From Gammaproteobacteria bacterium (GTDB taxonomy: Bacteria; Pseudomonadota; Gammaproteobacteria; Arenicellales; Poriferihabitantaceae): DNA of 64,000 nt. A model generated the notes under the pieces. It was not told the DNA's origin. It worked only from the letters and a program-made list of their open reading frames with translations, and searched no databases. The position numbers were made by a program, and so were the translations under genes. The DNA lies in NCBI GenBank assembly GCA_024644945.1, contig JAHEGU010000001.1:89937-153936 (forward strand). Reading direction: 5' to 3'. Of this stretch, positions 27,079-63,907 are shown piece after piece (position 1 is the stretch's first letter; the number at the start of each line of letters is the position of its first letter).

Positions 27079-28014
27079 ATGAAGGAAGATATTTCCTGGT
27101 TAAAAAAAAGGATAAGCGGTGAAGGCCCGCCTGTTGTAATTGACGGGGGCATGGGGACACAACTTGAAAAATCCGGGGTGCCCATGGATGGTAAGGTGTG
27201 GAGTGGTCGAGCGGTGCTTTCACATCCCCATGTCGTGCGACAGGTGCATGAAGAATTTATCGCCGCTGGCGCCGAGGTCATCATCGCCAACACCTTTGCG
27301 TCCGCTCGTCATATGTTAGAACCCGCGGGCTTCGGCGAACAGGTGAAGGAAATCAATCTCAATGCGGTCAAAATAGCGCAGGAGGCCCGCGGCCGTGTTG
27401 CACAGGAGCCGGTCGCCATCGCGGGTTCCATTTGCGAATGGGCGCCGACCGACGATCTTAAATGGCATACACCCGAAGCGGTAGGGAGCTCGATCAAGGA
27501 ACAAGCTGAGCTTCTCGCCGAAGCCGGCGTTGATCTGATTACGCTTGAGATGTGTGAGCAACTCGACTTTTCAGTTGCCGCAATCGAGGCCGCTCTCGAC
27601 ATTGGTTTGCCGATCTGGATCGGCATGAGCGCTCAGACTCACAAGGGCTGTCGATCCCTGTCGGTATTTGATTATGCAGAGCTGGATTTTGAGAGCTTAG
27701 TCAAAGGCCTGTCCGAATTTCCGGCCATGATGATGAACATCATGCATACACCGGTTTCAGATGTAGACAATGCTATGGGAATCGTAAAAAATTATTGGGA
27801 TGGGCCTATCGGAATCTATCCCGAATCGGGTTACTTTAAAATGCCAAACTGGCATTTCATAGATGTAATTGAAACTTACGAGTTCGCTCAATGCGCGAAG
27901 AACTGGATTAATAACGGCGCTCGTCTGATTGGTGGCTGCTGCGGATTAGGGCCTGACCACATTGCCGCGGTAAGAAAAACCGTAAATAATATTTTTGAAA
28001 ACCGAGACGGATAA
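27079..28014 (+). CDS. Homocysteine S-methyltransferase family protein
   Basis: The 311-aa ORF contains DGGMGTQLE near the N-terminus and IGGCCGLGPDHI near the C-terminus (Zn-binding Cys pair). Confidence 0.85.
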   Translation: MKEDISWLKKRISGEGPPVVIDGGMGTQLEKSGVPMDGKVWSGRAVLSHPHVVRQVHEEFIAAGAEVIIANTFASARHMLEPAGFGEQVKEINLNAVKIAQEARGRVAQEPVAIAGSICEWAPTDDLKWHTPEAVGSSIKEQAELLAEAGVDLITLEMCEQLDFSVAAIEAALDIGLPIWIGMSAQTHKGCRSLSVFDYAELDFESLVKGLSEFPAMMMNIMHTPVSDVDNAMGIVKNYWDGPIGIYPESGYFKMPNWHFIDVIETYEFAQCAKNWINNGARLIGGCCGLGPDHIAAVRKTVNNIFENRDG

Positions 28015-30602: not shown

Positions 30603-32363
30603 CTATTCAAGTCCGATAGCACTCAAGCTATTCAGATAGGGTTCCAATCCGCCGGCATGTTTTGTCGGCAGGTTTTTTTTGAGAAAGTCGATCGACAGAT
30701 CTGGTTTCGCCACCACTGCCGCAGCAAGAGACTGTTTCGCCTCGTCAATCCGACCCAGATTAGCCAGCGCGGAAGCCTTGACGGCATGTGGCCAGTAGCC
30801 TATTGCATTTGGAATCTGCAAGGTATGGTTGGCCCACTCCAGCGCCGCTTCATATTCTTGGCTTAGAATGTAATTCAGGGCATGGACAATTGTGAAGGCC
30901 CACAGCATCGGATCGCGCGGACTCATCGCGACCGCATGTTTGGTTGTATGTTTGGATTCTTCGAGCTCCCCTGCGAGCGATAACGCAAACGCGAGCCCGT
31001 GATAAGCCTGGGCAAAGCAGGGGTTGAGCTCGATCGACTTTCGCAGTGCCGCGATCGACGCGTCATGATCGCCCAGCATCATATAAATGCGGCCGATAGC
31101 GAAATACGATATGGCATCTCTGTCATCGCATTGCAGCGCCATCTTTGCGGCTGTCATACCTTCCCGCAGCAGTGTATCGGGATCTTCCGCGCTGCCCAAA
31201 ATCACGAACTGATAGCAACAATAGGCGTAGTAGGCATAAGCCGGAGCAAATTTAGGGTCCGCTGCGGAGGAACGTTTAAACAACTCCAGTGCGGTCTTAA
31301 TATTTTCATCTTTGTAGGTCCACATATGCCACAATGCCCGCTGATAAAGCTCCCACGCGTCGAGATTGTCGGGCGATTTGCTCAGCGCGCGTTCGCGCTC
31401 AAACGCATTTAACTCGGGCTCAAGCGCCGAAGCAATGACCATGACCATCTCATCCTGCAGATCGAAGATATCCTCCATTTCGCGATCATAGCGCTCGGCC
31501 CAGACATGGTGCCCGGTTTTGGCATCGATGAGCTGCACGGTCACACGCACGCGGTTGCCCGCCTTGCGCACGCTGCCCTCGAGCACGAAGCGAACGCCGA
31601 GCTCCTTGGCCACCTGGCGTACATCAATAGCCGTCCCTTTGTAGGAGAACGTGCTTTCACGAGAGATAACCTTGAACGAGCGAATCTTGGACAAGGCGGT
31701 GATCAGATCCTCGGTAATGCCGTCGCCAATAAAGTCAAGATCCGAATCCTGGTTCATATTGGTCAGCGCCAGTACGGCGATCGAGGGTTTCTCCGATGCG
31801 CCTGATGTAGTTAGCTCATCAAGCATGTGCTGCCTTTCTTCTGGCTTCCAATAAAACACGTGAACCGGTCGACCGATGTTCTTATACTGTTGTTCCCCGC
31901 CATCGGTGAATGTTGCCTCCTGTTTTCCCAGGATTTGATCGTAAACAGAAGCCGAGATACAGATACCGCCCTCGGGCGCACTGGCCTCGAGCCGGGCCGC
32001 CAGATTGACGCCGTCGCCATACACTTCACCTCGGTCCTCGATAACGTCACCGATGTTGACACCGATCCTGATCTGAACTTTCTTGTTATCGTCGAGCGAC
32101 TGGTTCTGGATATGCAACTCGGTTTGGATCTTAACCGCGCAATTAGCTGCTGTAACGGCGCTCGAAAACTCCGCCAGAATAGCGTCGCCGGCGTAACGTA
32201 AAACCGCACCGCCGCTGTCTTTAATCTGACTGCTGGCATAATCCAGAACCTCCATGGCCCGGCGATGGGTACCTTCCTCGTCCCCACCGGTCAACCGCGA
32301 ATAGCCGGCAATGTCGGCATATAAAATAGCGGTTAACTTGCGTTTGTAGGCTTCGGTCGTCAT
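30603..32363 (-). CDS. Class III adenylate/guanylate cyclase / TolB-N-like domain / TPR protein (paralogue 1, no obvious TM)
   Basis: The 586-aa ORF has cyclase motifs (LTAILYADIAGYSRL, RYAGDAILAEF, RIGVNIGDVI, YGDGVNLAARLE). A PSIAVLALTNMNQD...FIGDGITEDLITALS...LEGSVRK block follows, then TPR repeats. Confidence 0.85.
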   Translation of the reverse strand: MTTEAYKRKLTAILYADIAGYSRLTGGDEEGTHRRAMEVLDYASSQIKDSGGAVLRYAGDAILAEFSSAVTAANCAVKIQTELHIQNQSLDDNKKVQIRIGVNIGDVIEDRGEVYGDGVNLAARLEASAPEGGICISASVYDQILGKQEATFTDGGEQQYKNIGRPVHVFYWKPEERQHMLDELTTSGASEKPSIAVLALTNMNQDSDLDFIGDGITEDLITALSKIRSFKVISRESTFSYKGTAIDVRQVAKELGVRFVLEGSVRKAGNRVRVTVQLIDAKTGHHVWAERYDREMEDIFDLQDEMVMVIASALEPELNAFERERALSKSPDNLDAWELYQRALWHMWTYKDENIKTALELFKRSSAADPKFAPAYAYYAYCCYQFVILGSAEDPDTLLREGMTAAKMALQCDDRDAISYFAIGRIYMMLGDHDASIAALRKSIELNPCFAQAYHGLAFALSLAGELEESKHTTKHAVAMSPRDPMLWAFTIVHALNYILSQEYEAALEWANHTLQIPNAIGYWPHAVKASALANLGRIDEAKQSLAAAVVAKPDLSIDFLKKNLPTKHAGGLEPYLNSLSAIGLE

Positions 32364-33182: not shown

Positions 33183-35081
33183 TCACTCGGGGACTCCCGC
33201 CTCACGAAGCGCGTCGAGATAGTTTTCCAGATCGGCTTCATACAGATAGTTAGCTTCTCTGCGTTCTTTAGCAAGGGTTATTTCCGGGGTGATTGCCAGC
33301 GCTTCTTCAACCGACCAGGCAGCGTCATCCAATTGACCAAGCCGGACCAAGACTGCCGCGAGAGTCAGGTGGGTACGATCAAATCCCGGGTTGAGCTCAA
33401 TACTTTTCTCAAGCGATGCCAGCGCATCCGTATATCTGCCCATCAGGAAAAGAATCCTTCCCTCGACACCGTAATACACACCTGTGACCTGGATGTTTAA
33501 CTGTTTAGCGTGCTCAAGAGCTTCTAGTGCCTGCTCATATTGCCCCGAGTAGCTCAAGATGAAGGCCAGTGCCGCGTGCCCGTCAGCGTAATCTGGAAAC
33601 ACTTCAATAGTCCGCATTGCCGCCTCTACTGCGGCCTCATGCTGCCGCTGAGATAGGTAAAGAATACTACGAGTGAGGTAAATCTGCGGGATGCCATCAT
33701 CCAGTTGTAATGCTCTGTTGGCGTACTCCAGGCCCAGCTTAATCGACTCCTCCCGATTTGGTGTCCAATAGAAATTTACCTCTGTCCCATAGGTCAGGGC
33801 AATATTGGAATAGGCTCGCGCATAGTTTGGATCAAGCGCGACCGCCTGCTTGAACATCTCGCGCGCGGCTACCATCGATTCACGCGAATAATATGTGTAC
33901 TGCTGGAGTCCGCGTAACAACATGTCGTAGGCATCAGGATTGGTAGTTTCTACCTTAATCAGTCTTTCTTCTTCGGTCGGGGTAAGGTTTACTTTTAGCT
34001 CCTCGACGATCTTACGATTGACATCGTCCTGCAACGAAAATATGTCGGCCATGGTTCCATCAAATCGATCTGCCCAAATATGACCACCAGTTTCACCGTC
34101 CACGAGCTGTGCGTTGATTCGGATTTGATCGTTAACGCGACGCACACTGCCCTCGAGTATGTACTTCACGCCGAGTTCCTGCGAGACCGTGCGCAGGTCC
34201 ATCGACCTTCCTTTGTACGAAAAACTGGAGTTGCGCGCGACCACGAACAGCCCCGATATTCTCGATAAATCGGTGGTCAAGTCCTCGGTAATACCGTCAG
34301 CAAAATACTCCTGGTCAGGATCGTCACTCATGTTGTCGAAAGGCAAAACCGCAATCGAGGGTCTTTCGGATTGTGTTTGTTCCTTGGATTCAGAACTGAT
34401 CGGCTCTTTGGACTGCCAGTTGACAACACCGTAGGTGACTGCAGCGATAACAGCCAGTGCAACCAGGGCTATCATAACCTTGGGCCTCGGCGAGCTCTCG
34501 GCGGGGCCGCTACTTCGGCCGGGCTCGGGAAGCGGGACAGATGCCCCGCGCTTCAATGCGACCCGATAAACGCCAACGGGCTCTTCGAACCCCTTTAATT
34601 CCTGTTCACCGATATTCTCAAGCTCGAACGGCAGGCGCCTCGGAATCGCTTCGCGGACCGCTGGCGTAATGCATATTCCACCAGAATTCGCCAGTTGCTC
34701 CAGGCGCTGCGCCAGCACCACCCCGGCACCGGTGATCGTATTGTCTGCAATAACGACTTCACCCATGGCAATCCCGACCCGTACCAGCGGGCGGATATTA
34801 TCATCGAGTTGTGCATTGAAATTAGCCTGATCAGATAGGAAAGAGAGTGCCGCAGAAACCGCATCCGAGGCCCGGTTGAACTCGGCTAGCAGCGCATCAC
34901 CACGGAGTTCACGCACCTGACCATGATACTTAGAAATCGTTTCAGCAAAACGCTTAAAAGAACCCTGGATGCGCGTGTGAGCTTTGTGCTCATTCTGTTG
35001 TACCAGGGCGGTTGACCCCACGACATCCGCGTGCAGGATAACTGCGAGTTTGCCCGATAACTGTTTAGCTGCCATCAGCAA
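33183..35081 (-). CDS. Class III cyclase / TM helix / TolB-N-like / TPR protein (paralogue 2, membrane anchored)
   Basis: The 632-aa ORF has cyclase motifs (LAVILHADVVGSTAL, LRGDALLAEF, RVGIAMGEVV). A TM segment VMIALVALAVIAAVTYGVV follows, then PSIAVLPFDNMSDDPDQEYFADGITEDLTTDLS, then TPR repeats. Confidence 0.85.
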   Translation of the reverse strand: MLMAAKQLSGKLAVILHADVVGSTALVQQNEHKAHTRIQGSFKRFAETISKYHGQVRELRGDALLAEFNRASDAVSAALSFLSDQANFNAQLDDNIRPLVRVGIAMGEVVIADNTITGAGVVLAQRLEQLANSGGICITPAVREAIPRRLPFELENIGEQELKGFEEPVGVYRVALKRGASVPLPEPGRSSGPAESSPRPKVMIALVALAVIAAVTYGVVNWQSKEPISSESKEQTQSERPSIAVLPFDNMSDDPDQEYFADGITEDLTTDLSRISGLFVVARNSSFSYKGRSMDLRTVSQELGVKYILEGSVRRVNDQIRINAQLVDGETGGHIWADRFDGTMADIFSLQDDVNRKIVEELKVNLTPTEEERLIKVETTNPDAYDMLLRGLQQYTYYSRESMVAAREMFKQAVALDPNYARAYSNIALTYGTEVNFYWTPNREESIKLGLEYANRALQLDDGIPQIYLTRSILYLSQRQHEAAVEAAMRTIEVFPDYADGHAALAFILSYSGQYEQALEALEHAKQLNIQVTGVYYGVEGRILFLMGRYTDALASLEKSIELNPGFDRTHLTLAAVLVRLGQLDDAAWSVEEALAITPEITLAKERREANYLYEADLENYLDALREAGVPE

Positions 35082-35351: not shown

Positions 35352-37880
35352 CTAATCGTCTGTGATTTTCGGTGCATAGTCGGCACCCCGCGCGTCGTGA
35401 ATTGACTGGACTATTTGTTTAATCGCCGGGTATTTTCGAAGAATCTTCAGCATCGAACGCATCGAGATTCTCAGTACTATGCAGGGTGACTTAGCTTTTA
35501 TGGTGGCGGACCTGATATGTCGTCCGCTTTCAAACTCCGACAGTAACGAAGACTCTCCCATAATATCCCCATCGCTCAAATTTGCCACGTGATGACCGTA
35601 ACTTAGTGCGTCGGTGCGCCATACCGCGGCTTCGCCAACGATGATGATATAAAAATGATCGCCAGTCTCGTAGGCGCCCATAATAGTGTCACCCGGCAGA
35701 AAGGTAATACAGGTGGCATTTTTTTCCAGATCACTTCGGTCTTCTTCAGACAAATCGTCGAACAACTCTAGTTCATCCAACATTTCGGCAACGCTATTTT
35801 CATCACTTGATATGGTGGGTTTCATCTCCCTGATACGCTCAATTATCTTATTCACTTTATATTGTGTTGAAACATAACCCTTAGCGCTCAGGTCACCATG
35901 TTCGTATTGTTCATTAACATGGTTCCAGCCACTGTAGATGGTTGAGCGCCTGGCCAAAAGATCCAGATACTGGCGGTAAAAACTCGGAAAATGCGCTCGG
36001 GCCATTTTCAGCCTTTTGCGATAGTACTTTTTTCTTTTCTTATAGAGTTTGGTGACTACCCCTCGTGCCCCAAGCTCAAGGTCATCCTGGTTCTTGAGCG
36101 CAGTGATGACAGCCTCGCATATCAATACGTGCGCAAGGTTACGTTGTAATTGTTGTACCATTCGAGTGCCTTGAAATCTTGACATTAGCGCCGACGACCA
36201 GCGCCGTTCACGTATAGTGCGCAGAAACATTTCTTCGAGGCGCTGAAAATAACTCTGCTTACTACGCTTGCGGTGGCTCTCGATTTCGCGACCTCCTTGG
36301 CGCAGATCCTCGCGCGTATCATAAAGCTGGTTAAGCATATCCAAGTAAATATACTGACTAATGTAACCAATTTCGTAGAGACTTTTTAGTTCTTTGCGTT
36401 CGATATGATAGGCACGCAGTAAGGCGATAAAATCATCATCGCGGTGTTCGTCACCCTCTTCGTCAAGCCACCCTAGCCCAAACCCAATTTCAATATCGTT
36501 CAAAGTTCTGTTGACATCAGTCTCGGGTGCTAACTTGTTATTCAGTAATTTAGTAAAATTATCGTGCAGCTTGTGGCGTGCATCGATCAGCACGCTGCGC
36601 AGTTCCAATTCCTCTCCCTTTGATAGTTCATTCATGCCGAGACGCTGCATCAACGGGCGGATGGTGGGTGCGCTCACCAATAGCGTGAACAGCACCACAC
36701 CGATGGTGAGATCAAACAGAAACTGCCTTTCGGGCAGGTCACTTGGAATCGAAAGCACTACCGCTATTGCCAGTCCACCTTTGAGTCCGCCCCACCACAT
36801 GATATGGCGCTCATTCATGGTCACCTTTGGCAGGCGAAACCAGCGTGTGGTCAATGGTACAAACGTGTATATCGACAGTGCGCGCGCTATCAATACCAGT
36901 GCCACCACGATAAATACGGGTCCGATACGAGATAAAACGTTGTCAGTATTGACCGATAATCCCACCATCAAAAACAACAACGAGTTACAAGACAGAGCAA
37001 TCACTTCCCAGGTTTCGCTTATAGAATGCGTGACATCCTGGCGAATACGTGACATTCCAAACAGACGCAAAGCGATGGCCGCGCCGACAACCGCCATCAC
37101 ACCTGATATGTGCAGGGCATGTTCACCGACAACAAAAGCGGCATAGGCAATAATGATAGACGTGGTCAGGATTACGCTGACATTTGCTTTCATCCTGTAT
37201 ATCAGCTCGCAGGCAATAAAACCGAGTAAACCGCCGAAGATAGCGCCGCCGAAAAATACGCGTAAAAATTCCAGGAATACGTTATCTATATCGGATAGTC
37301 CGATAGCACTGCCTTCAACAGCGATAGCGAGGAGTATCGAGAAAGTGACGATGGCTGTCGCGTCATTGAACAACGACTCACCCTCAACCAGAACGTTCAA
37401 TCGATTTGGTGCGCCGAGCTCCTTGAATAGCGCCACTACGGCAACAGGATCGGTAGCTGAAATCAATGCGCCGAAAACTAGCGCAATGATCAATTTCATG
37501 TCCAAAGCAAGCCATACCCCAAACCCCACAATAAATGTCGATATCAACATCCCCGGGATCGCCAGAATTAGGACGGCGGGTAAATCCTTGGTTAACTGTC
37601 GCGCATCCAACGCGAATCCTGACTCGAAAATGAGCGCTGGTAGAAAGATAAACAGCATGACCTCTGGACTGAGCTCGAAATCCTTCAGCGGCAGCAACAA
37701 CGGCCAACTTTCCGCAAGATTACTCAGCAATACGCCGATAACGACTAATACAACGGTAAAGGGGACCGGTAGTTTTCGACAGACGCCGGTGACCAGCATC
37801 GCAATGCCCAACAGGACAACCAGGACAAATACGGTTTCAGAAACTGGCATGGCTTTATCGTCTTCTCGACAAAACCACAA
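35352..37880 (-). CDS. CPA1 (NhaP-type) Na+/H+ exchanger fused to a C-terminal cyclic-nucleotide-binding domain
   Basis: The 842-aa ORF has an N-terminal ~420-aa polytopic exchanger (ATDPVAVVALFKELG, GESLFNDATAI). A ~270-aa linker follows. The C-terminal CAP-type CNBD contains FLPGDTIMGAYETGDHFYIIIVGEA...GDIMGESSLLS...RSATIKA. The start is possibly the ATG at 37850. Confidence 0.85.
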   Translation of the reverse strand: MWFCREDDKAMPVSETVFVLVVLLGIAMLVTGVCRKLPVPFTVVLVVIGVLLSNLAESWPLLLPLKDFELSPEVMLFIFLPALIFESGFALDARQLTKDLPAVLILAIPGMLISTFIVGFGVWLALDMKLIIALVFGALISATDPVAVVALFKELGAPNRLNVLVEGESLFNDATAIVTFSILLAIAVEGSAIGLSDIDNVFLEFLRVFFGGAIFGGLLGFIACELIYRMKANVSVILTTSIIIAYAAFVVGEHALHISGVMAVVGAAIALRLFGMSRIRQDVTHSISETWEVIALSCNSLLFLMVGLSVNTDNVLSRIGPVFIVVALVLIARALSIYTFVPLTTRWFRLPKVTMNERHIMWWGGLKGGLAIAVVLSIPSDLPERQFLFDLTIGVVLFTLLVSAPTIRPLMQRLGMNELSKGEELELRSVLIDARHKLHDNFTKLLNNKLAPETDVNRTLNDIEIGFGLGWLDEEGDEHRDDDFIALLRAYHIERKELKSLYEIGYISQYIYLDMLNQLYDTREDLRQGGREIESHRKRSKQSYFQRLEEMFLRTIRERRWSSALMSRFQGTRMVQQLQRNLAHVLICEAVITALKNQDDLELGARGVVTKLYKKRKKYYRKRLKMARAHFPSFYRQYLDLLARRSTIYSGWNHVNEQYEHGDLSAKGYVSTQYKVNKIIERIREMKPTISSDENSVAEMLDELELFDDLSEEDRSDLEKNATCITFLPGDTIMGAYETGDHFYIIIVGEAAVWRTDALSYGHHVANLSDGDIMGESSLLSEFESGRHIRSATIKAKSPCIVLRISMRSMLKILRKYPAIKQIVQSIHDARGADYAPKITDD

Positions 37881-46540: not shown

Positions 46541-47410
46541 CTATGACTCCGCACCTTTAAGGAACTTATCGATCTCTGGGGTACGGTATCCGTCGTTGCG
46601 CCAGATCACGGGAAAATAGTTCTCGTCGAGAAGATTGTCATCAAGGTGTTTATAGCGGCTGTATATTGTCCCAGTGCCTTGGCTAAGATGCGCTGGGTCA
46701 TAGTGCGCATCGCTGCGCATGCCGTGAAGCACCAAGGATCGACGTGGCCGCGATGATTTATTCTCACCTGATCCATGCCAGGTCCATCCGTGATGGAAAG
46801 AACCACCACCCTTGGGCACCTCGACATAGACGATTTCCGGCTCAACGCCTTCCCTTTTTGCAGCCTGCTCCATGTAGCGTCGATAGTTTTTGGGTCCGTG
46901 GAATTCGCCCTCGGGTGCAGAGTACTGCCATTGATGTGAACCTCTGACGAATTCAATGGTGCCCCCGCTGGCGGCAGTATCATCTAGTGCTATCCAGCAA
47001 CTCAACAATTCAGATGGTGTATACCAGTTTAAATAGGCATTATCCTGGTGATAAAGAATTGAACGCGTGCCGGGTGGCTTCCATACAACGTTGTCGATCA
47101 TAAGGCGCGTGCCAGGCCAGCCTCCCAGGGCGGCAATAGACTCACCCATATCAGAACGCGTGACAACGCTTGCAATAGTTCGGTTCGCTTTCCAACCGTT
47201 ACATATCTGACGGGTTAAAGTCGGGTCACCAGTACCTTGCTGCCAATTGACCTCATCTGGCGTAATACCGGTTTCAAACTCACCGCGAAACAGTTGATCA
47301 AAGCAGTTTCGAAGCTTTTTCACCGTGTCATTACTAATCAGACGTTCGATTACCAGAAAACCATCGTTGTTGAACTGATTAATTTGGGCGTCGGACAGAT
47401 TCTGTATCAT
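46541..47410 (-). CDS. Phytanoyl-CoA dioxygenase (PhyH) family Fe(II)/2OG oxygenase
   Basis: The 289-aa ORF contains FNNDGFLVIERL, ILYHQDNAY (HxD), and GWTWHGSGEN (distal His). Confidence 0.8.
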   Translation of the reverse strand: MIQNLSDAQINQFNNDGFLVIERLISNDTVKKLRNCFDQLFRGEFETGITPDEVNWQQGTGDPTLTRQICNGWKANRTIASVVTRSDMGESIAALGGWPGTRLMIDNVVWKPPGTRSILYHQDNAYLNWYTPSELLSCWIALDDTAASGGTIEFVRGSHQWQYSAPEGEFHGPKNYRRYMEQAAKREGVEPEIVYVEVPKGGGSFHHGWTWHGSGENKSSRPRRSLVLHGMRSDAHYDPAHLSQGTGTIYSRYKHLDDNLLDENYFPVIWRNDGYRTPEIDKFLKGAES

Positions 47411-48207: not shown

Positions 48208-49971
48208 TCAGTGCATCGGAAGCCCCGCGTCTTGAAGAGCCTTGATATCGGCTTCGAGTAATTTTTTATCTGCATGAAACTGGGTATTTTTCCAGGCGCT
48301 AATTATGAAATCTCGACGGATTGATAATAGTTGTTCCGCAGTTTGTTTTGCCTCTTCAGGCCTGCCGGTTTGTTGATAGATTATTACTAAATCTGTCAGG
48401 CCAAACCCGGCGTTGCGGGCGTGAAAGGATTTAAAAGCATCGATTGCTTCTTCGAACCTTCCTGCCAGTCGATAAGCGTTGCCGAGAATCCCTAAGTAAT
48501 AGCCGGGATAGTTCGGGCTCAGGGTCTTCGCTCTTTCACCTTGCGCCACCGCCTCTTCTGAGTAGCCTGAAAACGCCAATATGAAGCAGGCAAATGTTGC
48601 GGCGTCAGCCGAACCAGGGGCCACCTGAACAGCTTTTCTAATATGGGTTACGGCGTCGTCGTAGCGATCTTCCATGAGCAAACCGAGGCCTGCAGTAATG
48701 TTGGCGGCGGAATTTTCGGGATCCAGTTCAAGCGCCCGGTCTGCGTAACGGCGCGCTTTGCCGAGTGCCGTTTCCCGATCGTCCCACCAGCCAAAGCGCG
48801 CATCGGAGTAATGCTTAAAGCCGATCATGGCATTGAGCGCGGCCGAATTCGGATCAAGCTCGAGCGCCCGATTCCAGCATTCAAGCACGCGGGCGGCATT
48901 TTCCTTGGTCACCGCTTGGCGGTAAAAGGACAGGCCCTCTACCCAGTGTGTCCACGCCTCGACGTTGCTGGTTGTTGTGTAATGCAGTCGCGCCTGCTCG
49001 CCCTCGGTCAGGTTAACTTGCATCTCGGTCGCCAGGACTAACGTGATTTCGTCCTGGACCGCGAAAATGTCGTCTATGGTGCGGTCATAACGTTCAGCCC
49101 AGACGTGGGAGCCGCTGCGAGCATCGATAAGTTGCGCGGTGATGCGAATGCGGCTAGCGCTCTTTCTTACACTGCCTTCCAGAACATATCGCACATCAAG
49201 TTGCTTCGCCACGTCGCGGATGTCGACCGCCTGCTCCTTGTAGACGAAGGTAGAGTTGCGCGCAATGACCCGCAGCCCGGCCAGCTTAGAAAGGGTTGTG
49301 ATGATATCTTCGACCAGTCCGTCAGCGAAAAACTCTTGCTCAGGGTCATCGCTCATGGTGGTAAAGGGCAGAACAGCGATGGAGGGCGTGTCAGGCAGGT
49401 TTGGTGTTTCCGGTTTGGATTCAACGGGTGATTCGCTCTCGGGAATCCCGTCACCCGGTATTAAACGGACTGCATAGGCCTTGATCGGTTTATCGAATCC
49501 TTTCAGCTCGCATTCACCCAGATCCTCATAATCGAACGGTAATCGCTTTGGCACGGTCTCGCATGCGGCGCCTTGAATACATACTCCACCAGGTTCGGCC
49601 AATTGTTCCAATCGCTGCGCAAGCACGATCCCTTCTCCAGTCACGGTGTTATCCGCGACCACGACTTCACCCATGGCAATGCCAACGCGCACTATAGGGC
49701 GAATCTGGTCGCGCAGCTCTTCGATAAGAGCGGTGTTACCAGACTGGAAAGTCAGTGATGCACAGATCGCATCTGAGGCTCTGGCAAATTCCGCAACCAG
49801 TGCATCACCTCGAATCTCATGGGCGACGCCATTATAGCGGGCGATGATTTCAGAGAACCGGCGGAACGCATCCTGTATGCGCTGATGGGCCAGCGTCTCA
49901 TCCATCTGCACCAGTCCCGTAGAGCCAACAACATCAGCGTGCAGAAGAACAGCAAGTTTTCGATTGGTCAC
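48208..49971 (-). CDS. Class III cyclase / TolB-N-like / TPR protein (paralogue 3)
   Basis: The 587-aa ORF contains LAVLLHADVVGSTGL, IRGDALVAEF, RVGIAMGEVVV and PSIAVLPFTTMSDDPEQEFFADGLVEDIITTLS, followed by TPR repeats. It is closely colinear with ORF 33183-35081 but lacks the TM segment. Confidence 0.85.
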   Translation of the reverse strand: MTNRKLAVLLHADVVGSTGLVQMDETLAHQRIQDAFRRFSEIIARYNGVAHEIRGDALVAEFARASDAICASLTFQSGNTALIEELRDQIRPIVRVGIAMGEVVVADNTVTGEGIVLAQRLEQLAEPGGVCIQGAACETVPKRLPFDYEDLGECELKGFDKPIKAYAVRLIPGDGIPESESPVESKPETPNLPDTPSIAVLPFTTMSDDPEQEFFADGLVEDIITTLSKLAGLRVIARNSTFVYKEQAVDIRDVAKQLDVRYVLEGSVRKSASRIRITAQLIDARSGSHVWAERYDRTIDDIFAVQDEITLVLATEMQVNLTEGEQARLHYTTTSNVEAWTHWVEGLSFYRQAVTKENAARVLECWNRALELDPNSAALNAMIGFKHYSDARFGWWDDRETALGKARRYADRALELDPENSAANITAGLGLLMEDRYDDAVTHIRKAVQVAPGSADAATFACFILAFSGYSEEAVAQGERAKTLSPNYPGYYLGILGNAYRLAGRFEEAIDAFKSFHARNAGFGLTDLVIIYQQTGRPEEAKQTAEQLLSIRRDFIISAWKNTQFHADKKLLEADIKALQDAGLPMH

Positions 49972-52692: not shown

Positions 52693-53817
52693 ATGTCTAT
52701 CGGAGATGTTACCGATCGAATAGTACAGCTTTCCGTTTCTAAACGTGCACTGTTTGAGTCACGGTTGAGTGAGCTCGGACTCGACGACGTGATTTGCGAG
52801 TATCCCGCATTCAAGGCAATCGAGGAAGTGCCTATTGCGGGAATAGGCTCTAACAGGCTAAAACAGCCGAACGATGAATTTCCCCTAGTTGTGCACGCCC
52901 CCAGTGCGCGGCCACAGCTCACTGCGTGGATCGAGGAAAATAGTGCCTGGATCCAAGAAAACCTGCGGAAATCTGGAGCAATTTTGTTTAGAGATTTTCA
53001 TATTGATGGACCTCCGGAATTCGAGCAGTGCATAGAGCGCGCCTGCGGTAAAACTACCGACTACCCTGGCCTTGCTCAAGGTGTTGTGCTTCGACAGCAT
53101 ATTCATGGAAAGATCTATACATCGACGGAGTATTCCCCGATGTTTCGCATCCGCCTGCATAATGAATGTTCATTTGCGAACACCTGGCCGGCACAGATTT
53201 GTTTCTTCTGCGTTACTGCGCCCGAAAGTGGCGGTGAGACGCCGATTGCGGATTCACGTCGCGTACTCATGCACATCAAACAGGAAACAGTAGATCGATT
53301 GGCTAAGCATGGCATTCTATATGTCCGCAACTTCGGCTACGGGTCGTCTCGCACCTGGGAGCAGGCCTTTGCCACCACAGATAAGTCTATAGTAGAAGAG
53401 ATTTGCAGCGCAGAGGGAGTAACGTGTGAATGGTTGGATCGATCTCGGTTGCGCACTCGAGCAGTACGCCCGCCCGTTGCACGACATCCGATCACCGGCG
53501 AAGTGGTCTGGTTCAATCATATTAATGCGTCGCATATTTCGTCACTCGAACCGGGATTGCGCGATGGGTTATTAGCAGAATTTGGGAAGGACAACTTGCC
53601 GAGAAATTGCTACTACGGCGATGGCACTGACATTGATCAGACTGTTATCAATGAAATTCAGCAGGCATACGAGGCGCAAACCGAGGCTTATGGCTGGCAG
53701 CCTGGCGATTTACTTATGCTCGACAACATGTTGACATCACATGGAAGAAATCCTTTTACGGGCCAACGTAAAATTGTGGTCGGCATGGCGGGCTCAATTA
53801 AGCGAACCCGCTTGTGA
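52693..53817 (+). CDS. TauD/clavaminate-synthase-like Fe(II)/2OG dioxygenase of the NRPS-associated type
   Basis: The 374-aa ORF has an HxE facial-triad motif in RLHNECSF and a distal TSHGRNPF. The N-terminal LSVSKRALFESRL resembles leader segments seen on NRPS-associated proteins. Its stop overlaps the start of the A-T gene in the sequence GTGA. Confidence 0.7.
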   Translation: MSIGDVTDRIVQLSVSKRALFESRLSELGLDDVICEYPAFKAIEEVPIAGIGSNRLKQPNDEFPLVVHAPSARPQLTAWIEENSAWIQENLRKSGAILFRDFHIDGPPEFEQCIERACGKTTDYPGLAQGVVLRQHIHGKIYTSTEYSPMFRIRLHNECSFANTWPAQICFFCVTAPESGGETPIADSRRVLMHIKQETVDRLAKHGILYVRNFGYGSSRTWEQAFATTDKSIVEEICSAEGVTCEWLDRSRLRTRAVRPPVARHPITGEVVWFNHINASHISSLEPGLRDGLLAEFGKDNLPRNCYYGDGTDIDQTVINEIQQAYEAQTEAYGWQPGDLLMLDNMLTSHGRNPFTGQRKIVVGMAGSIKRTRL

Positions 53818-56522
53818 GAGGCAGCCAGGATTCGTCAATGCAATACTCGTCTCAATCCCAATTCCCGGCGACCCACTCGTTCGCGCAAACCAACGTACAG
53901 CTTATCAATCAGCTCAAAGACGGTTATACGGATTCAGAAATTAGTGAGGTCCAAGCTGCGTATGAACTGGCCTGTAGTCTGTTTAGCAGTATTTTTCGTG
54001 GGTGCGGAAAACCGTTCCTCGCACATGCTGTTGGCACCGCCAGCATTGTTGCCGCTTTGGATGCACCAATACAATCGGTGACCGCTGCGCTCCTTCATGC
54101 CGCCTATATGTCGGGTAACTTTGGATTCAAGGGTGGTGGTGCTTCAACCGCCAATCGCAAGCGGATTCGAGATGCAGTGGGAAAGCAAAGTGAACAGTTG
54201 ATATTGCGCTATACGGAATTTACATGGCGCAGTGCGGCGGCAATTCCCCGAATTGTGCAAGGTTTTCCCGCACTGTCCCAAACTGATAGGGATGTGCTGC
54301 TTATGCGCCTGGCCAACGAGCTAGAGGAATATCTCGACCTCGGCATGCTGTATTGTGAAGATGCGGAAAAGCGGATTCAGTTTTGCGAAATCTATGGCAG
54401 CTATATGGTCGATCTTGCGGATCGGCTTGGTATTGATAGGCTCTCCACATGGCTCACCCAGGCTTTCGATGTTGTAAAGCAGGAATCCGTTGAGCGAATC
54501 GGCGACGATTCACCCGAGCCTTTACCGCGACACTCCAGCGATCTGGCAGAAATCTCTGTAAGGCAATCTGGCCGAGCTGCGACGCAACTCCATATTCCTG
54601 AAGAAAGCGAAGTCGACTTAGAGGTTGCAAATATAAGTATCGATGACTCAATCACCTATAACTTCGAACTTCAAGCGATGCGGCATCCAGATAAAGTCGC
54701 AGTTGAATATCGTAACGGAAGTATGAGCTATCGGGAGCTTCACGAACAGACAGACCGCCTCGCACGGGGCATACTGGCCCGCTTTGGGTCAGGTAATGAT
54801 CCCGTCGTAACCCTGTGCAGACACGACCCCAATGTAGTCGTATTCGCGCTTGGCATTTTAAAGGCCAATAAGATCTGGATACCATTGGACGCGACACATC
54901 CGGCACAACGTCTGTCGTTGATTGCGCAGGACTCCAAGGCCGTTTGTATGCTGAGCGATGACACACTCACAGATCTTGCGCGATCTGTTGCGACCCATGA
55001 GCAGGCAATCCTCACATTGAGCGAGGCGATCAATAGTGGTACGGCGAGCACTTCGATACCTGAAGTCTCAGCCGACAGTATAGCTTGCGTACTGTATACC
55101 TCGGGTTCCACGGGAACGCCCAAGGGCGTGATTCACAGTCACCGCAATCTTCTTCACCTGACGCGGCGTGGTTCCAAAGCATTTAAGATTTCCCCAGACG
55201 ATCGGTTAACACTGCTGCCTTCGTGTAGCCAAATCGCCGGCATTACAGATTTGCTTCGAGCCTTACTCAACGGCGCGACTCTGTTTCCATTTGATGTGCG
55301 CGAAGACTCGATCCGAAGTCTTGGCAGCTGGTTGGTTGATCAGCGGATCTCGATCTACCATTCCTCGCCAACTTTGTTTCGATTGCTGGCTGATAATTTG
55401 TCCGAACACGATACTATTCCCAGTGTGCGGGCAATCCACCTGGGGGGTGAGGCGGTTTCTCAGGCGGATGTTGATCTATATAAAAGTCACTTCTCGCCGA
55501 CCTGCACGCTCTTGAATAACCTCGGCTGTACTGAGTTGTCGGGTTATCGACAGTTATTCATCGACCATGATTTTACCTCGAACAAGAGTGTTGTACCCGC
55601 GGGATACGCCGTTGACGACGTCGAAGTATCAGTATGTGATGAAAAGGGTGAGGACCTGCCGACCGGTCAGGTCGGAGAAATCACGGTAACCAGTCGCTAT
55701 CTCGCGCTTGGATACTGGCAGCGGCCTGAGGAAACGAACGCTTTATTCTATTGTAGTGAGAATAATCAAGGCGCTCGAACATACCATACCGGTGATATGG
55801 GTTACATGCTGGCGGACGGCTGCCTGGTTTACATCGGCCGCGGAGGTGGTCAGATACAAGTCAGAGGTAACCGAGTAGACGCTGCGGAAATAGAGGCGGC
55901 GCTCGCCGTCCATCCCGGGGTCCAACGGGTCGCGGTGAAAGTATCGCAATTTCAAAGTGAACCATTAATCGCTTACATCGTGCCCCGTGGCGATGATATT
56001 CCAAGCGTCAATGAATTACGCAATTTCGTGAAAACGAAACTGCCCACGTATATGATCCCTTCCGTAGTGTTGGTAGAAAAGTTACCGCTTACGCCTAACG
56101 GAAAGATCAACTACGAACAGCTAGGACAGCCCTCGACACTCAGTCCGCATAGTACACCAGAGCACATACCGCCCCACACCCAGACCGAAACGGCCCTTGC
56201 TCGGCTGTGGTCCGAGCTGGTGGAGCCCGAAAGAATAGGTGTGCACGACGATTTTTTCGCATTGGGTGGTGACTCATTACTCGTCACTCAGTTGGTGAAC
56301 CATATAGCGGACGAGTTCGGCATTCATGTCAGCCTACACGATGTTTTCTTACACGCCACCCTGGGCGAACTTGCGACGATTGTCGCGGCGCGAGGCATCG
56401 GTAACGCATGGAACAGGTTAAGTGATTCCGAACAACAGAGTTTATTGACCGCTCTATCCGAGGTTGAGAAACTTTCGGAGTCACAAACACAGCAGTTGCT
56501 GCAAGCATCTACATCTTTTTAA
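53814..56522 (+). CDS. NRPS-like protein: N-terminal HD-like helical domain (DUF6817-like by recollection) / adenylation domain / peptidyl carrier domain; no C or TE domain
   Basis: The 902-aa ORF has these A-domain cores: SYRELHEQ (A1), LKANKIWIPLD (A2), LYTSGSTGTPKGV (A3), YHTGDMGY (A7), GRGGGQIQVRGNRVDAAEIE (A8), LPTYMIPS (A9), LPLTPNGKINY (A10). The carrier motif is FFALGGDSLL. The N-terminal ~280 aa contain GKPFLAHAVGTASIVAALDAPIQSVTAALLHAAY. Confidence 0.85.
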   Translation: MRGSQDSSMQYSSQSQFPATHSFAQTNVQLINQLKDGYTDSEISEVQAAYELACSLFSSIFRGCGKPFLAHAVGTASIVAALDAPIQSVTAALLHAAYMSGNFGFKGGGASTANRKRIRDAVGKQSEQLILRYTEFTWRSAAAIPRIVQGFPALSQTDRDVLLMRLANELEEYLDLGMLYCEDAEKRIQFCEIYGSYMVDLADRLGIDRLSTWLTQAFDVVKQESVERIGDDSPEPLPRHSSDLAEISVRQSGRAATQLHIPEESEVDLEVANISIDDSITYNFELQAMRHPDKVAVEYRNGSMSYRELHEQTDRLARGILARFGSGNDPVVTLCRHDPNVVVFALGILKANKIWIPLDATHPAQRLSLIAQDSKAVCMLSDDTLTDLARSVATHEQAILTLSEAINSGTASTSIPEVSADSIACVLYTSGSTGTPKGVIHSHRNLLHLTRRGSKAFKISPDDRLTLLPSCSQIAGITDLLRALLNGATLFPFDVREDSIRSLGSWLVDQRISIYHSSPTLFRLLADNLSEHDTIPSVRAIHLGGEAVSQADVDLYKSHFSPTCTLLNNLGCTELSGYRQLFIDHDFTSNKSVVPAGYAVDDVEVSVCDEKGEDLPTGQVGEITVTSRYLALGYWQRPEETNALFYCSENNQGARTYHTGDMGYMLADGCLVYIGRGGGQIQVRGNRVDAAEIEAALAVHPGVQRVAVKVSQFQSEPLIAYIVPRGDDIPSVNELRNFVKTKLPTYMIPSVVLVEKLPLTPNGKINYEQLGQPSTLSPHSTPEHIPPHTQTETALARLWSELVEPERIGVHDDFFALGGDSLLVTQLVNHIADEFGIHVSLHDVFLHATLGELATIVAARGIGNAWNRLSDSEQQSLLTALSEVEKLSESQTQQLLQASTSF

Positions 56523-56932: not shown

Positions 56933-57097
56933 GATAGCCTCAATATTCTAGCCACACCAGATGACTATAAAATCAATCGTCTTCCCTGCGTAAACCGGAA
57001 TCCAAAATCAACAATTTGTTTGCACAGTTTATTCTCAGAAATAGGTAAACTGTCACCTGAAGTATATGATTGTAACAATATCAATGAGGAAATATTA

Positions 57098-57385
57098 ATG
57101 TCAAATGAAGGTTACCATGAACCAATCACTGAGCTCTCAGATGAGACCAGAGACATGCATCGGGCGATCACATCGCTAATGGAAGAATTAGAGGCGGTCG
57201 ACTGGTACAACCAGCGGGTAGATGCGTGCAAGGATAATGATCTAAAAGCAATACTTGCGCATAATCGTGATGAAGAAAAAGAACATGCTGCTATGGTGCT
57301 TGAATGGATTCGTCGTAAAGACCCATCTTTTGACAGCGAGCTCAAGGACTATTTATTTACCGATAAACCCATTGCACATAAGTAG
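57098..57385 (+). CDS. EncFtn-type (encapsulated-ferritin-like) ferritin-like protein, without cargo-loading peptide
   Basis: The ORF contains HEPITELSDETRDMHRAITSLMEELEAVDWYNQRVDACKDNDLKAILAHNRDEEKEHAAMVLEWIRRKDP...DYLFTDKPIAHK*. The start at the ATG at 57098 is preceded by gaggaaatatta. Confidence 0.7.
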   Translation: MSNEGYHEPITELSDETRDMHRAITSLMEELEAVDWYNQRVDACKDNDLKAILAHNRDEEKEHAAMVLEWIRRKDPSFDSELKDYLFTDKPIAHK

Positions 57386-57473: not shown

Positions 57474-57839
57474 ATGAAAGCAGTCGTTAAATCCCACGAT
57501 CTCAGCAACGAGTTCTATACCCCTGAGAAGTGCTACATCACTGAATTATCTAATTCCAATGATGATCCAGATGTATCCATTACGCGAGCGAGACTAGAGC
57601 CCGGTGTCACCACCCGATGGCATCGGCTTTCATCCACATCCGAACGCTATTATATTATTAGCGGTGAAGGACGTGTGGAGATAGGAGACTTGTCGCCACA
57701 AAATGTAAAGGCCGAAGATATCGTACTCATCCCTCCAATGTGTCCTCAACGCATCACTAACATCGGATCAGAAGATCTGGTGTTCCTGGCAATCTGCACA
57801 CCCCGCTTCACCAATGATGTCTATGAAGATATTGAATAA
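57474..57839 (+). CDS. Cupin domain protein
   Basis: The 121-aa ORF has a single cupin barrel (TRWHRLSSTSERYYIISGEG...IPPMCPQRITNIG). Confidence 0.65.
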   Translation: MKAVVKSHDLSNEFYTPEKCYITELSNSNDDPDVSITRARLEPGVTTRWHRLSSTSERYYIISGEGRVEIGDLSPQNVKAEDIVLIPPMCPQRITNIGSEDLVFLAICTPRFTNDVYEDIE

Positions 57840-60247: not shown

Positions 60248-60829
60248 ACGTGGACTCGTTTTAAGGGGGCAGGTCAAGCCATACTTGCGAAAAGCTGCGT
60301 GGTGAATGATAACAATAATCCAAATATGAACCTGGCTAAAGTGGAACAAGAACTCAAAGCGCTGCTGGGACTTAGAAAAATAATATGGGTTGAGGATATT
60401 AAGGACAAAGATATTACGGATGGGCAGATCGATTTTTATGCACGCTTTTCAAAGAAAGGAGAAGTTCTTATGAGCAAGGGTAATTATCGACAATCGTACG
60501 ATTACGAGGTCACCAGAGAGAATATTGATGTTTTGAGTAAAGCCACCGATGCGGATGGGAATAAACTCAATGTGGTGATCATCGATACACCTGACTCAAT
60601 TGACGAATCATCTGGCGTTGACGACTTCGCAGCAGGATATATCGGCTATTATGTGTCTAATGGTGCGCTAATCATGCAAAGTTTTGGGGATAAAAAGGCA
60701 GATCAAAATGCCAGGAAAACAATATCTAAGGCGTTTCCAACTAGAGCAGTAGAGCAATTAGAAATAAATGGAATTGCTTCAGGTGGCGATACTATCCACT
60801 GCGCAACACAGCAAGAGCCAAGGATCTAA
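60248..60829 (+). pseudogene. Agmatine deiminase / PAD_porph family, C-terminal half only (N-terminal half missing)
   Basis: The translation is KGAGQAILAKSCVVNDNNNPN...IIWV...DITDGQIDFY...GGDTIHCATQQEP. It aligns to the second half of AguA-type enzymes. The catalytic GH(V/I)D His is replaced by Gln. There is an in-frame stop at 60245-60247 and no upstream ORF. Confidence 0.65.
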
Positions 60830-62875: not shown

Positions 62876-63907
62876 TTACCGCTTTTGCCTCCACCATCTG
62901 ACAAGCGCTTTTTCCAGCTCGGGAAACAGGAATCCGGCCGGGAGACCCAGCAGCACGAGCAACCACCACTCGGCTGGGAAGGCCTCTGTGCGAAACAGAT
63001 TGTTCATAAAAGGCGCGTAGACCAACGACAGATTGAAGATCAGCGTCATAGCCACACCCATCAGCAGCCATCGGTTGCCGAAGGGGCTGAACGAGAAGGC
63101 GGAACCCAGGATGGATCTGGCGGTGAATACATAGCCTAGGTGGACCATTACGACCATCATGAGCGTCGCCGTCTGAGCCTGCGCGAGATCGGCCGTATTA
63201 CCCGCCGCCAGGAGCTCGTGGCCGAACTGCCAGTATGTGTAGAAACCCAGTGCGGCCATGACGACGGAAACCAGCCCCACTCGTTGGAAAAAAAGCGCGT
63301 TGGCGATTTTTTCCTTTACCGAACGCGGTGGCCTGTCGAGCAAGCCTTTTTCCTTAAGCTCGAGCATCAGCGGCATGGTGAGGAACACCGAGTCGAACAG
63401 GTTGACCCAGAGGATTTGAATCGGCTCCAGCGGGAGGCGTAACGAGAAGACCGCGACAAAGGGTGCAGCCAGCAGCGCGCCCATCACCAGCAGAGCCTGG
63501 CCGCCGTTGGTGGGGAGAGTGTAATGAATAGCTTTTTCGATGTTGTTCCAGGCGTGTCGACCCTCCTCCACCGCTCCGACGATGCTGGCGAAGTTGTCAT
63601 CGGTAAGCACCATGTCCGCCGCTTCCTTGCTGACCTCCGTTCCGGTGATGCCCATGGCCACACCGATGTCGGCAGCTTTGAGTGCGGGAGCGTCGTTGAC
63701 ACCGTCCCCCGTCATGGCAACGATCTCGCCCCTGTGTTGGAGCTGCTGGCAGATCTGCAGCTTATGCTCTGGCGCCACCCGGGCTTAGACGGAGACGTCG
63801 TTCACCGCCTCGGCCAGCTCAGTTGGCGACATGCACGCGAGCTGCTCGCCGACCCTGGCAATGGACTGGGTGGTGATTATGTTGACGCGGGACGGCGTGT
63901 TATCCGA
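62876..63907 (-). pseudogene. P-type ATPase (type II-like) remnant: C-terminal ~300 aa intact, interrupted by an in-frame TAA, upstream part degraded or absent
   Basis: The translation contains ..ARVAPEHKLQICQQLQHRGEIVAMTGDGVNDAPALKAADIGVAMG.. plus C-terminal TM helices. A TAA at 63785-63787 immediately precedes ARVAPEHK (..ELAEAVNDVSV*ARVAPEHK). Further upstream, RVNIITTQSIARVG lacks the TGD motif. Another stop lies at 63908-63910. Confidence 0.75.

Follow-up and report, generated by a model that had tools for sequence, protein, structure and literature searches.

The subject of this analysis is a pair of adjacent genes in a stretch of 64,000 nucleotides (nt) from contig JAHEGU010000001.1 of a gammaproteobacterium (assembly GCA_024644945.1), hereafter called the window. 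The first gene encodes a TauD-family Fe(II)/2-oxoglutarate (2OG) dioxygenase, and the second encodes a protein in which an HD-fold domain of the DUF6817 family is fused to the adenylation (A) and carrier, or thiolation (T), domains of a nonribosomal peptide synthetase (NRPS). The pair is real and well above chance, its domain annotation is correct, and the search for the same tridomain architecture in other genomes, proposed in an earlier note made from the sequence alone, recovered the pair in four unrelated neighbourhoods at 39-67% identity. With a probability of roughly one half (0.5), the two genes form a self-contained, carrier-based tailoring cassette in which an acidic substrate that is not an amino acid would be hydroxylated on the carrier and then cut by oxidative C-C cleavage. 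Neither the covalent DUF6817-A-T fusion nor its conserved specificity code without Asp235 nor the stand-alone two-gene cassette is described in the accessible literature. The cassette consists of the following features, all on the forward strand.

52693..53817 (+): TauD/TfdA-family Fe(II)/2OG dioxygenase, 374 amino acids (aa), Pfam TauD
52693..52917 (+): N-terminal extension of the dioxygenase, about 75 aa, with the conserved motif RIxxLSxxxRxxLExxLxxxG(L/I)D
53838..56522 (+): tridomain gene (DUF6817-A-T), 894 aa from ATG 53838; the frame is open from GTG 53814, which gives 902 aa
53871..54512 (+): DUF6817/SmaX-like HD-fold domain, PF20680, residues 12-225 (894-aa numbering)
54513..54662 (+): linker of about 50 aa, poorly conserved and predicted to be disordered (predicted local distance difference test, pLDDT, <50 over residues 235-277)
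54663..56105 (+): NRPS-type adenylation domain, AMP-binding (residues 284-635 of the 902-aa frame) plus AMP-binding_C
56196..56378 (+): carrier (thiolation) domain, PP-binding (residues 795-855 of the 902-aa frame), with the attachment Ser in GGDSL
56379..56519 (+): tail that follows the carrier at the C-terminus; conserved motif LLxxLxE(V/I)Exx(S/T)E

In the 902-aa open reading frame (ORF) 53814-56522 four Pfam families scored above their gathering cut-offs (DUF6817/PF20680, AMP-binding, AMP-binding_C, and PP-binding). The complete adenylation and carrier domains read from the letters by the earlier note were recovered with AMP-binding at E 1e-63, AMP-binding_C, and PP-binding at E 2.4e-15, the latter containing FFALGGDSLL (motif at nucleotide 56265). 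The same note had given the product as 902 aa and had described it as translationally coupled to the dioxygenase through a GTGA overlap. The ORF lies where it was placed and the overlap is present in the DNA (GTG 53814, TGA 53815-53817), but the true start is probably ATG 53838 (MQYSSQSQFPATHSFAQTN...), which yields 894 aa and a 20-nt gap after the TauD stop codon, because this start was used in the gene calls from independent assemblies and in all homologues and because an AGGA lies 7 nt upstream of it. The two genes are thus probably tightly linked without an overlap of start and stop codons. The 894-aa protein was assembled identically in three runs, and the source sequence occurs in marine sediment metagenomes. 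A promoter and terminator scan of 51.9-57.1 kb returned only uninformative counts, below the shuffle expectation. Full-length relatives with the same DUF6817-A-T order were found at 91, 88, 61, 58, 52, 50, 46, 42, and 39-40% identity; among these the linker is 25-40% identical, compared with 45-70% for the flanking domains, so that the N-terminal, A and T domains have evolved at much the same pace and the linker varies freely. This parallel divergence fits a single working unit.

In three unrelated neighbourhoods the fused gene directly follows the dioxygenase gene, with a gap of 2-20 nt; these are the window together with its 91%-identical relative L014, locus L010, and the Competibacteraceae-like loci L012, L013, and L021. 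In the fourth neighbourhood (L011), which looks cyanobacterial, the dioxygenase gene is located about 2.3 kb upstream, and three small ORFs separate it from the fused gene. The identities of the two proteins move in step (67/59, 44/40, and 41/42% for TauD/fused protein). Besides the two genes no neighbour was shared outside L014. The genes around the pair in the window encode a GFA-family protein, an MR/MLE enolase-superfamily enzyme, an HNH protein, an EncFtn-like protein, a cupin, and a TetR protein, the first two as the earlier note had described them. The GFA and enolase genes were placed outside the unit because no window neighbour is shared beyond the 91% relative, and GFA, enolase, HNH, and the other neighbours were rejected as parts of the cassette, being common only to the window and L014. 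When 1.84 billion cluster representatives were searched exhaustively with HMMER, about 1,200 relatives of the N-terminal domain were found, and only three of the 150 best had a length consistent with fusion to A-T; likewise, the fusion was found in only 3 of 80 loci from GTDB species genomes. The DUF6817-A-T architecture is therefore rare.

Whether such a unit works alone or serves an assembly line encoded elsewhere is a question on which the surroundings of the pair bear directly. A six-frame motif scan of the 64-kb window and Pfam searches of its 57 other candidate ORFs, which include every ORF of at least 390 aa and leave out some shorter overlapping ones, detected no condensation (C), thioesterase (TE), or reductase (R) domain and no MbtH or phosphopantetheinyl transferase (PPTase) gene; for the C domain this absence rests on the HHxxxDG scan and Pfam. 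In the six-frame scan the A-core motif and the carrier motif each occurred only once in the whole window. The absence of C, TE, R, and MbtH noted earlier was thereby upheld, and the PPTase check that the note had suggested gave the same negative outcome for the window. No C domain and no release (TE or R) domain was found within 10 kb of the cassette in L010, L012, or L013. L011 is the only neighbourhood with a C-A-T module, its fused gene being directly followed by one of TubC_N-C-A-T type.

The carrier tail was found to co-vary with the N-terminus of the dioxygenase. Stand-alone cassettes with an adjacent TauD gene combine the tail LLxxLxE(V/I)Exx(S/T)E with the dioxygenase motif RIxxLSxxxRxxLExxL, which is kept in three lineages (window, L010, and L012/L013). 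The fused protein of L011 (P0180) instead ends in ...ENWEEIEI and has partners that carry TubC_N, a docking domain that takes the place of the N-terminal motif in the L011 dioxygenase; the N-terminus of the window dioxygenase gave no Pfam match to TubC_N even at E 10, and only the L011 dioxygenase carries this domain. From this co-variation we infer that the N-terminal helix of the dioxygenase may dock to the carrier tail, the two segments being a candidate pair.

These observations can be set against the view that the cassette is an ordinary NRPS loading and tailoring module whose C and release partners are located elsewhere in the genome and are recruited in trans, its product being a modified starter or building block for a peptide or siderophore. 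The arrangement in L011, with both the TubC_N-C-A-T module after the fused gene and the TubC_N on the dioxygenase, agrees with it, as do the typical location of this TauD clade inside NRPS clusters and a published survey that ties SmaX homologues, TauD, and NRPSs together (Kim et al., J Am Chem Soc 2025, PMC12186529). It accounts less well for the lack of C, TE, and MbtH genes in 64 kb of the window, for the three further independent contexts without a C domain within 10 kb, for the conservation of only the dioxygenase and fused genes across lineages, and for a carrier tail that co-varies with the TauD N-terminus and not with an NRPS docking domain. We consider such recruitment in trans unlikely.

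Some of the related loci have further genes in common. In L012 (9558-17592), L013 (13059-14882), and L021 the cassette is followed by a conserved ORF of 186 aa that belongs to no assigned family and by a GATase_4 gene. L012 also contains genes for an Asn-synthase, an ATP-grasp/GNAT protein, an M42 peptidase, and a second A-T protein within 10 kb.

The dioxygenase itself was confirmed as a TauD-type enzyme (Pfam TauD, ORF 52693-53817, E 3.5e-41) with the facial triad H156-x-E158...H350, in which the HxE lies inside RLHNECSF as the earlier note had read it. H156, E158, H350, R352, and R359 are invariant among the dioxygenases that partner with the fused protein, R352/R359 providing the 2OG-binding Arg. 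A halogenase was also considered and was rejected because the acidic residue of the triad is present as Glu (HxE) and is not replaced by Ala or Gly. Among solved structures, At3g21360 (1Y0Z, E 2.5e-34) and SqoD, a sulfoquinovose dioxygenase (9YUT, E 9e-29), come closest, and the nearest relatives outside the cassette are TauDs of about 350 aa with 47-50% identity. Relatives at 46-50% identity include fusions of TauD to a carrier (PP-binding) domain and TubC_N-TauD forms. Two sampled contexts of related TauDs (49% identical to that of the window) lie inside NRPS clusters, one of them siderophore-like with a TonB-dependent receptor and a lipo-initiation module. By sequence relationship the window dioxygenase is a member of an NRPS-embedded or NRPS-associated clade, and this membership supports, without proving, action on a carrier-bound substrate. 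The window also carries a second TauD-family gene, two PhyH-family dioxygenase genes, and a second MR/MLE enolase-superfamily gene (7283-8185 (+), 8222-9241 (-), 20178-21227 (-), and 46541-47410 (-)), and these have no link to the cassette in other genomes.

The earlier note had assigned the N-terminal domain to DUF6817 and to a (p)ppGpp-hydrolase-type HD fold without the HD dyad, and both assignments held. DUF6817/PF20680 matched residues 66-134 of the 902-aa frame with 34.1 bits (gathering cut-off 25.2) and was present in all fused and stand-alone relatives examined, while HD_4 matched below its cut-off. In an alignment of the window domain with 60 stand-alone relatives (61 sequences) the invariant residues were H63, H87, Y90, G93, E119, Y125, L158, and N160 in 894-aa numbering, with no further invariant His or Asp beyond H63 and H87. 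H63, H87, and N160 (H71, H95, and N168 in 902-aa numbering) are putative ligands of a single iron. The second His is followed by A88, nearly invariant in the 61 sequences, at the position of the Asp in HD proteins. When a profile was built from these sequences, it matched the Rel/SpoT hydrolase domains among PDB sequences with E 1e-14. In the AlphaFold2 model residues 12-225 are all-helical with pLDDT >90, and the top Foldseek matches of this model were Rel, SpoT, and small alarmone hydrolases (E 3e-5; template modelling scores reaching 0.75 when normalised to the small alarmone hydrolases). The profile and model comparisons support an N-terminal domain (about 225 aa) with a Rel/SpoT-type HD fold that has lost the HD dyad.

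Two known activities of such folds were considered and rejected for this domain. It is not an alarmone ((p)ppGpp) hydrolase, because the HD aspartate (here Ala) and the ED diad (LLHAAYMSG) are both lost, and the last Asp is Asn. A mixed-valent di-iron HD oxygenase of the PhnZ, TmpB, or MIOX type would require a six-ligand site of four His and two Asp, which the domain does not have.

The closest functional guide is SmaX, the sole characterised DUF6817 member in a full-text literature search for DUF6817/PF20680. SmaX is an Fe(II)-dependent HD-domain oxygenase that is recognised only as DUF6817 plus HD_4 by HHpred, has no HD aspartate, and binds a single iron on H39, H63, and N143. Its action depends on the prior formation of beta-hydroxy-Asp by the Fe/2OG hydroxylase SmaO, and its product is aminomalonate; H31, T68, R104, and Q147 contact the substrate. 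The same authors reported, on bioinformatic grounds only, 52 gene clusters in which SmaX homologues occur together with TauD-like oxygenases and with NRPSs whose A domains are of the Asp/Asn type, and they likened SmaO/SmaX to PhnY/PhnZ and TmpA/TmpB (PMC12186529). Because SmaX and the 52 clusters are published, the combination of TauD with DUF6817 has a precedent, and the N-terminal domain is to that extent a known NRPS accessory; the fusion, the Asp235-less code, and the stand-alone recurrence of the pair are what remain of the undescribed pathway that the earlier note had proposed.

SmaX is relevant also to the view that the N-terminal domain is no oxygenase at all and that a hydrolytic, offloading, ligand-sensing, or structural HD fold accompanies a dioxygenase which alone modifies the substrate, as in the classical pairs of A-T proteins and Fe/2OG enzymes. 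The nearest structures are indeed (p)ppGpp hydrolases, the closest relatives of the domain occur in glycosyltransferase contexts without an Fe/2OG partner, and a hydrolytic activity would supply the missing release step. The loss of the HD aspartate and of the Rel ED diad argues against this view, however, as do the invariant 2-His-1-Asn set, which matches the metal site reported for SmaX, and the repeated specific pairing with TauD, which follows the pattern of PhnY/PhnZ, TmpA/TmpB, and SmaO/SmaX. A non-oxygenase function is in our judgement unlikely.

DUF6817 and A-T domains were also found joined in the opposite order. Three further proteins (P0242, P0248, and P0279; locus L099 1291-3894), with P0479 listed alongside, have the permuted form A-T-DUF6817, in which the A-domain code is different (AGR..GSTFK) and DUF6817 directly follows the carrier. 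This position is the usual one for domains that act on tethered intermediates. In a neighbour-joining tree without bootstrap values the DUF6817 domains of the permuted proteins fell outside the clade of the N-terminally fused ones, and because the domains of the two orders fall in separate clades this points to at least two independent events in which DUF6817 joined A-T. Two independent fusions would be strong comparative evidence that DUF6817 works with carrier-bound acids.

The fusions bear as well on the proposal that both oxygenases act on a free small molecule and that their final product is then loaded by the A domain, with the fusion serving co-expression or channelling only. The published work left open whether the substrate in the NRPS-linked cascade is free or bound (PMC12186529), and SqoD and At3g21360, the closest solved relatives of the dioxygenase, act on free small molecules. 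The TauD-carrier fusions and docking-domain TauDs in the same clade speak for a bound substrate instead, and so does the placement of DUF6817 directly after the carrier in the permuted form. In addition, free acids of the malonyl type such as aminomalonate are unstable substrates for adenylation. We regard the free-substrate proposal as very improbable.

The nature of the substrate was approached through the A domain. Its motifs are A3 YTSGSTGTPKG, A7 YHTGD, and A10 PNGK, with an unusual A5 (NNLGCTE) and A8 (GRGGGQIQVRG); TIGR01733 scored 293.9 bits, below its cut-off of 317.4, and the best PDB matches were the NRPS A domains of LgrA, TycA, and GrsA. The specificity code was extracted by alignment to GrsA-PheA, and the numbering was checked by the occurrence of Asp235 and Lys517 at the correct numbers; the same extraction gave canonical codes such as DAWTVAAVCK for control NRPS modules. 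The Stachelhaus code of the window A domain is IATHHGNGYK, and IATHHGN(G/Y)(Y/C)K is kept in 11 of the 12 full-length N-terminally fused relatives from 91% down to 39% identity, P0180 being the exception with MANHHGNYRK. The pocket residues are I235, A236, T239, H278, H299, G301, and N322, so that two His and an Asn line the pocket. In the Stachelhaus and Challis codes Asp235 anchors the alpha-amino group of amino-acid substrates, and this residue is absent in all N-terminally fused relatives, where it is replaced by Ile or, in P0180, by Met. Since Asp235 is lost, the substrate is probably not Asp or Asn. The code is not one for either of these amino acids, which sets the fused family apart from the SmaX-related clusters of the 2025 survey. 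An acidic substrate without an alpha-amino group would be the most economical reading of this pocket, with the hydroxy, oxo, and deamino analogues of aspartate as candidates.

Taken with the domain assignments, these features can be arranged into a sequence of reactions for the tailoring cassette. In the first step the A domain would activate an acidic carboxylic acid without an alpha-amino group and transfer it to the carrier of the same protein as a thioester. The dioxygenase, presumably held in place by its N-terminal helix on the carrier tail, would then hydroxylate the tethered acid at the carbon beside the free carboxylate, as its homology and the fusions in its clade suggest. The SmaX-like domain would use O2 and one Fe(II) on H63, H87, and N160 to remove one carbon and leave a malonyl-type half-thioester. 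This cleavage would be the analogue of the conversion of Asp via beta-hydroxy-Asp to aminomalonate, with OH, oxo, or H more likely than NH2 as the group on the alpha carbon. Offloading would occur either by transfer to an unlinked partner, such as the C-A-T module beside one relative, or by hydrolysis. A further-reaching version, which we put forward tentatively and regard as doubtful, is a free-standing hydroxylate-then-cut route on a non-amino dicarboxylic acid that is independent of NRPSs and polyketide synthases (PKSs), for example from malate or oxaloacetate to a hydroxymalonyl- or ketomalonyl-type thioester.

A different fate of the tethered acid would be a self-release that resembles alpha-oxidation: the dioxygenase would hydroxylate the carbon next to the thioester, and the HD oxygenase would cut between C1 and C2 and set free an acid one carbon shorter, so that neither TE nor C would be needed. 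This would explain the lack of a release domain in three of the four neighbourhoods, and its formal chemistry, as far as can be inferred, would be like that of phytanoyl-CoA alpha-oxidation and of the SmaX reaction. The substrate of SmaX, however, is an alpha-hydroxy-carboxylate and not an alpha-hydroxy-thioester, and the L011 relative hands its product to a C domain, which requires that the product is still tethered. It counts further against self-release that SyrP-type TauDs associated with NRPSs place the hydroxyl group on the beta carbon. We regard this route as quite improbable.

Several observations weigh against on-carrier hydroxylation followed by oxidative cleavage. No offloading step is evident in the cassette. 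The structural match of the N-terminal domain to PhnZ is weak (rank 50 in the Foldseek listing, probability 0.44). The equivalence of the metal ligands with those of SmaX was taken from residue spacing and HD-superfamily positions and not from a direct alignment. When the positions of the SmaX substrate contacts were matched by spacing in the same manner, they were occupied by G55 (H-8), S92 (H+5), and E164 (N+4), and these differing residues suggest another substrate than that of SmaX. In the A8 hinge (about 55840-55870) the window copy has GRGGGQIQVRG, compared with GRGDGQ or GRxDxQ in the 91% relative and other members; Gly thus replaces the hinge Asp that is conserved in adenylate-forming enzymes. 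No TauD gene was found near the permuted A-T-DUF6817 gene on the sole readable contig, of 8.3 kb. No credible transcripts of the dioxygenase and tridomain genes were found in the very small metatranscriptomes from the same study, in which the matches were limited to the conserved A3 motif and came from other genes.

The contexts of DUF6817 genes elsewhere belong with these points. The closest stand-alone relatives (45-50% identity to the N-terminal domain) have a conserved GT2 glycosyltransferase gene as their direct neighbour in about 60 of the 80 loci from GTDB species genomes, and no TauD gene was found near the DUF6817 genes at those loci. Examples are found within L015-L093 (such as L015 6973-8765 and L066 4528-6353; proteins P0432, P0526, and P0535), and the phyla include cyanobacteria, Acidobacteriota, Methylomirabilota, Binatia, and Chloroflexota. 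Some of these GT2-DUF6817 pairs are fused into one protein, and other fusions join DUF6817 to an NAD-dependent sugar epimerase/dehydratase or to a Mur-ligase middle domain (P0474, P0480, and P0410-P0414 cover these and a tandem double DUF6817). The chemistry of DUF6817 may hence be broader than, or different from, that of SmaX, and the GT2-linked relatives hint at a second, glycan-related and uncharacterised role for the family.

Elsewhere in the window several genes were recorded as observations in their own right. Shortly downstream of the cassette an EncFtn-like (encapsulated ferritin) gene (57020-57385 (+)) has no encapsulin shell gene alongside, and the cupin gene that comes next (57474-57839) is absent from L014. 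Five genes with class III adenylate/guanylate cyclase domains occur in the 64 kb (11316-12599, 22429-25707, 30603-32363, 33183-35081, and 48208-49971), of which one carries in addition a GAF domain, one a zinc ribbon with AAA_16, and three TPR domains. A Na+/H+ exchanger with a cyclic-nucleotide-binding domain is encoded at 35352-37880. Genes for a dimethylsulfoniopropionate (DMSP) lyase (PF16867; 32511-33143 (-)) and a homocysteine S-methyltransferase (27079-28014 (+)) fit a marine organosulfur metabolism. A PAD_porph (agmatine deiminase-like) ORF at 60299-60829 (+) spans only profile positions 150-321 with no N-terminal half upstream, and a P-type ATPase ORF at 62876-63778 (-) comprises the C-terminal part only; both are probably pseudogenes or the result of assembly breaks.

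HD-fold oxygenases that cut C-C or C-P bonds form a very small class, consisting of MIOX, PhnZ, TmpB, and, since 2025, SmaX. If the free-standing hydroxylate-then-cut route is correct, no HD-fold oxygenase would have been known before as part of an NRPS-like enzyme, or the cassette would represent a new route to malonyl-type carrier units or a carrier put to a new, catabolic use in marine sediment bacteria. As a compact two-protein system with a built-in carrier it could be used to test SmaX-type chemistry on carrier-tethered substrates. The absence of Asp235 from the conserved code implies that the substrate is not Asp, and this chemistry may hence extend beyond aminomalonate.

Among known systems SmaO/SmaX is alike in that an Fe/2OG hydroxylase gene lies next to a gene for a DUF6817/HD_4-like protein with a 2-His-1-Asn set and a His-His spacing of 24 residues. 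It differs in that SmaX stands alone and acts on Asp of a ribosomal peptide and in that SmaO is no TauD, whereas in the window the domain is fused to A-T, the hydroxylase is a TauD, the A-domain code is not one for Asp/Asn, and the cassettes lie mostly outside NRPS clusters. PhnY/PhnZ and TmpA/TmpB, in which an Fe/2OG hydroxylase precedes a C-P-cleaving HD oxygenase, share a partner of the TauD/gamma-butyrobetaine hydroxylase kind, but the metal site of PhnZ and TmpB is a mixed-valent di-iron centre with six ligands and their substrates are free phosphonates, compared with only the invariant H63, H87, and N160 in the window. In the Rel, SpoT, and small alarmone (p)ppGpp hydrolases the positions of the first His, the second His, and the last Asp/Asn correspond to those of the window domain, in which, unlike in these enzymes, Ala stands in place of the HD Asp and Asn in place of the last Asp, and the ED diad is absent.

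Fe/2OG enzymes also serve A-T didomains in trans, as do SyrP on SyrE-bound Asp, SyrB1/SyrB2, CmaA/CmaB, and the siderophore Asp beta-hydroxylases. These systems likewise consist of an A-T unit and an adjacent non-haem iron enzyme, but they feed a larger assembly line, lack an HD-fold domain, and have A domains that keep Asp235, whereas the window cassette has an extra fused oxygenase and usually no assembly line nearby. Pathways of the zwittermicin type make aminomalonyl- or hydroxymalonyl-acyl carrier protein (ACP) by FkbH-type loading or from seryl-ACP with dehydrogenases, in PKS clusters. Pathways of this type are mentioned also in the work on SmaX (PMC12186529). The proposed end product of the cassette would resemble theirs in being a malonyl-type unit on a dedicated carrier protein, but they involve no Fe/2OG and HD-fold oxygenases.

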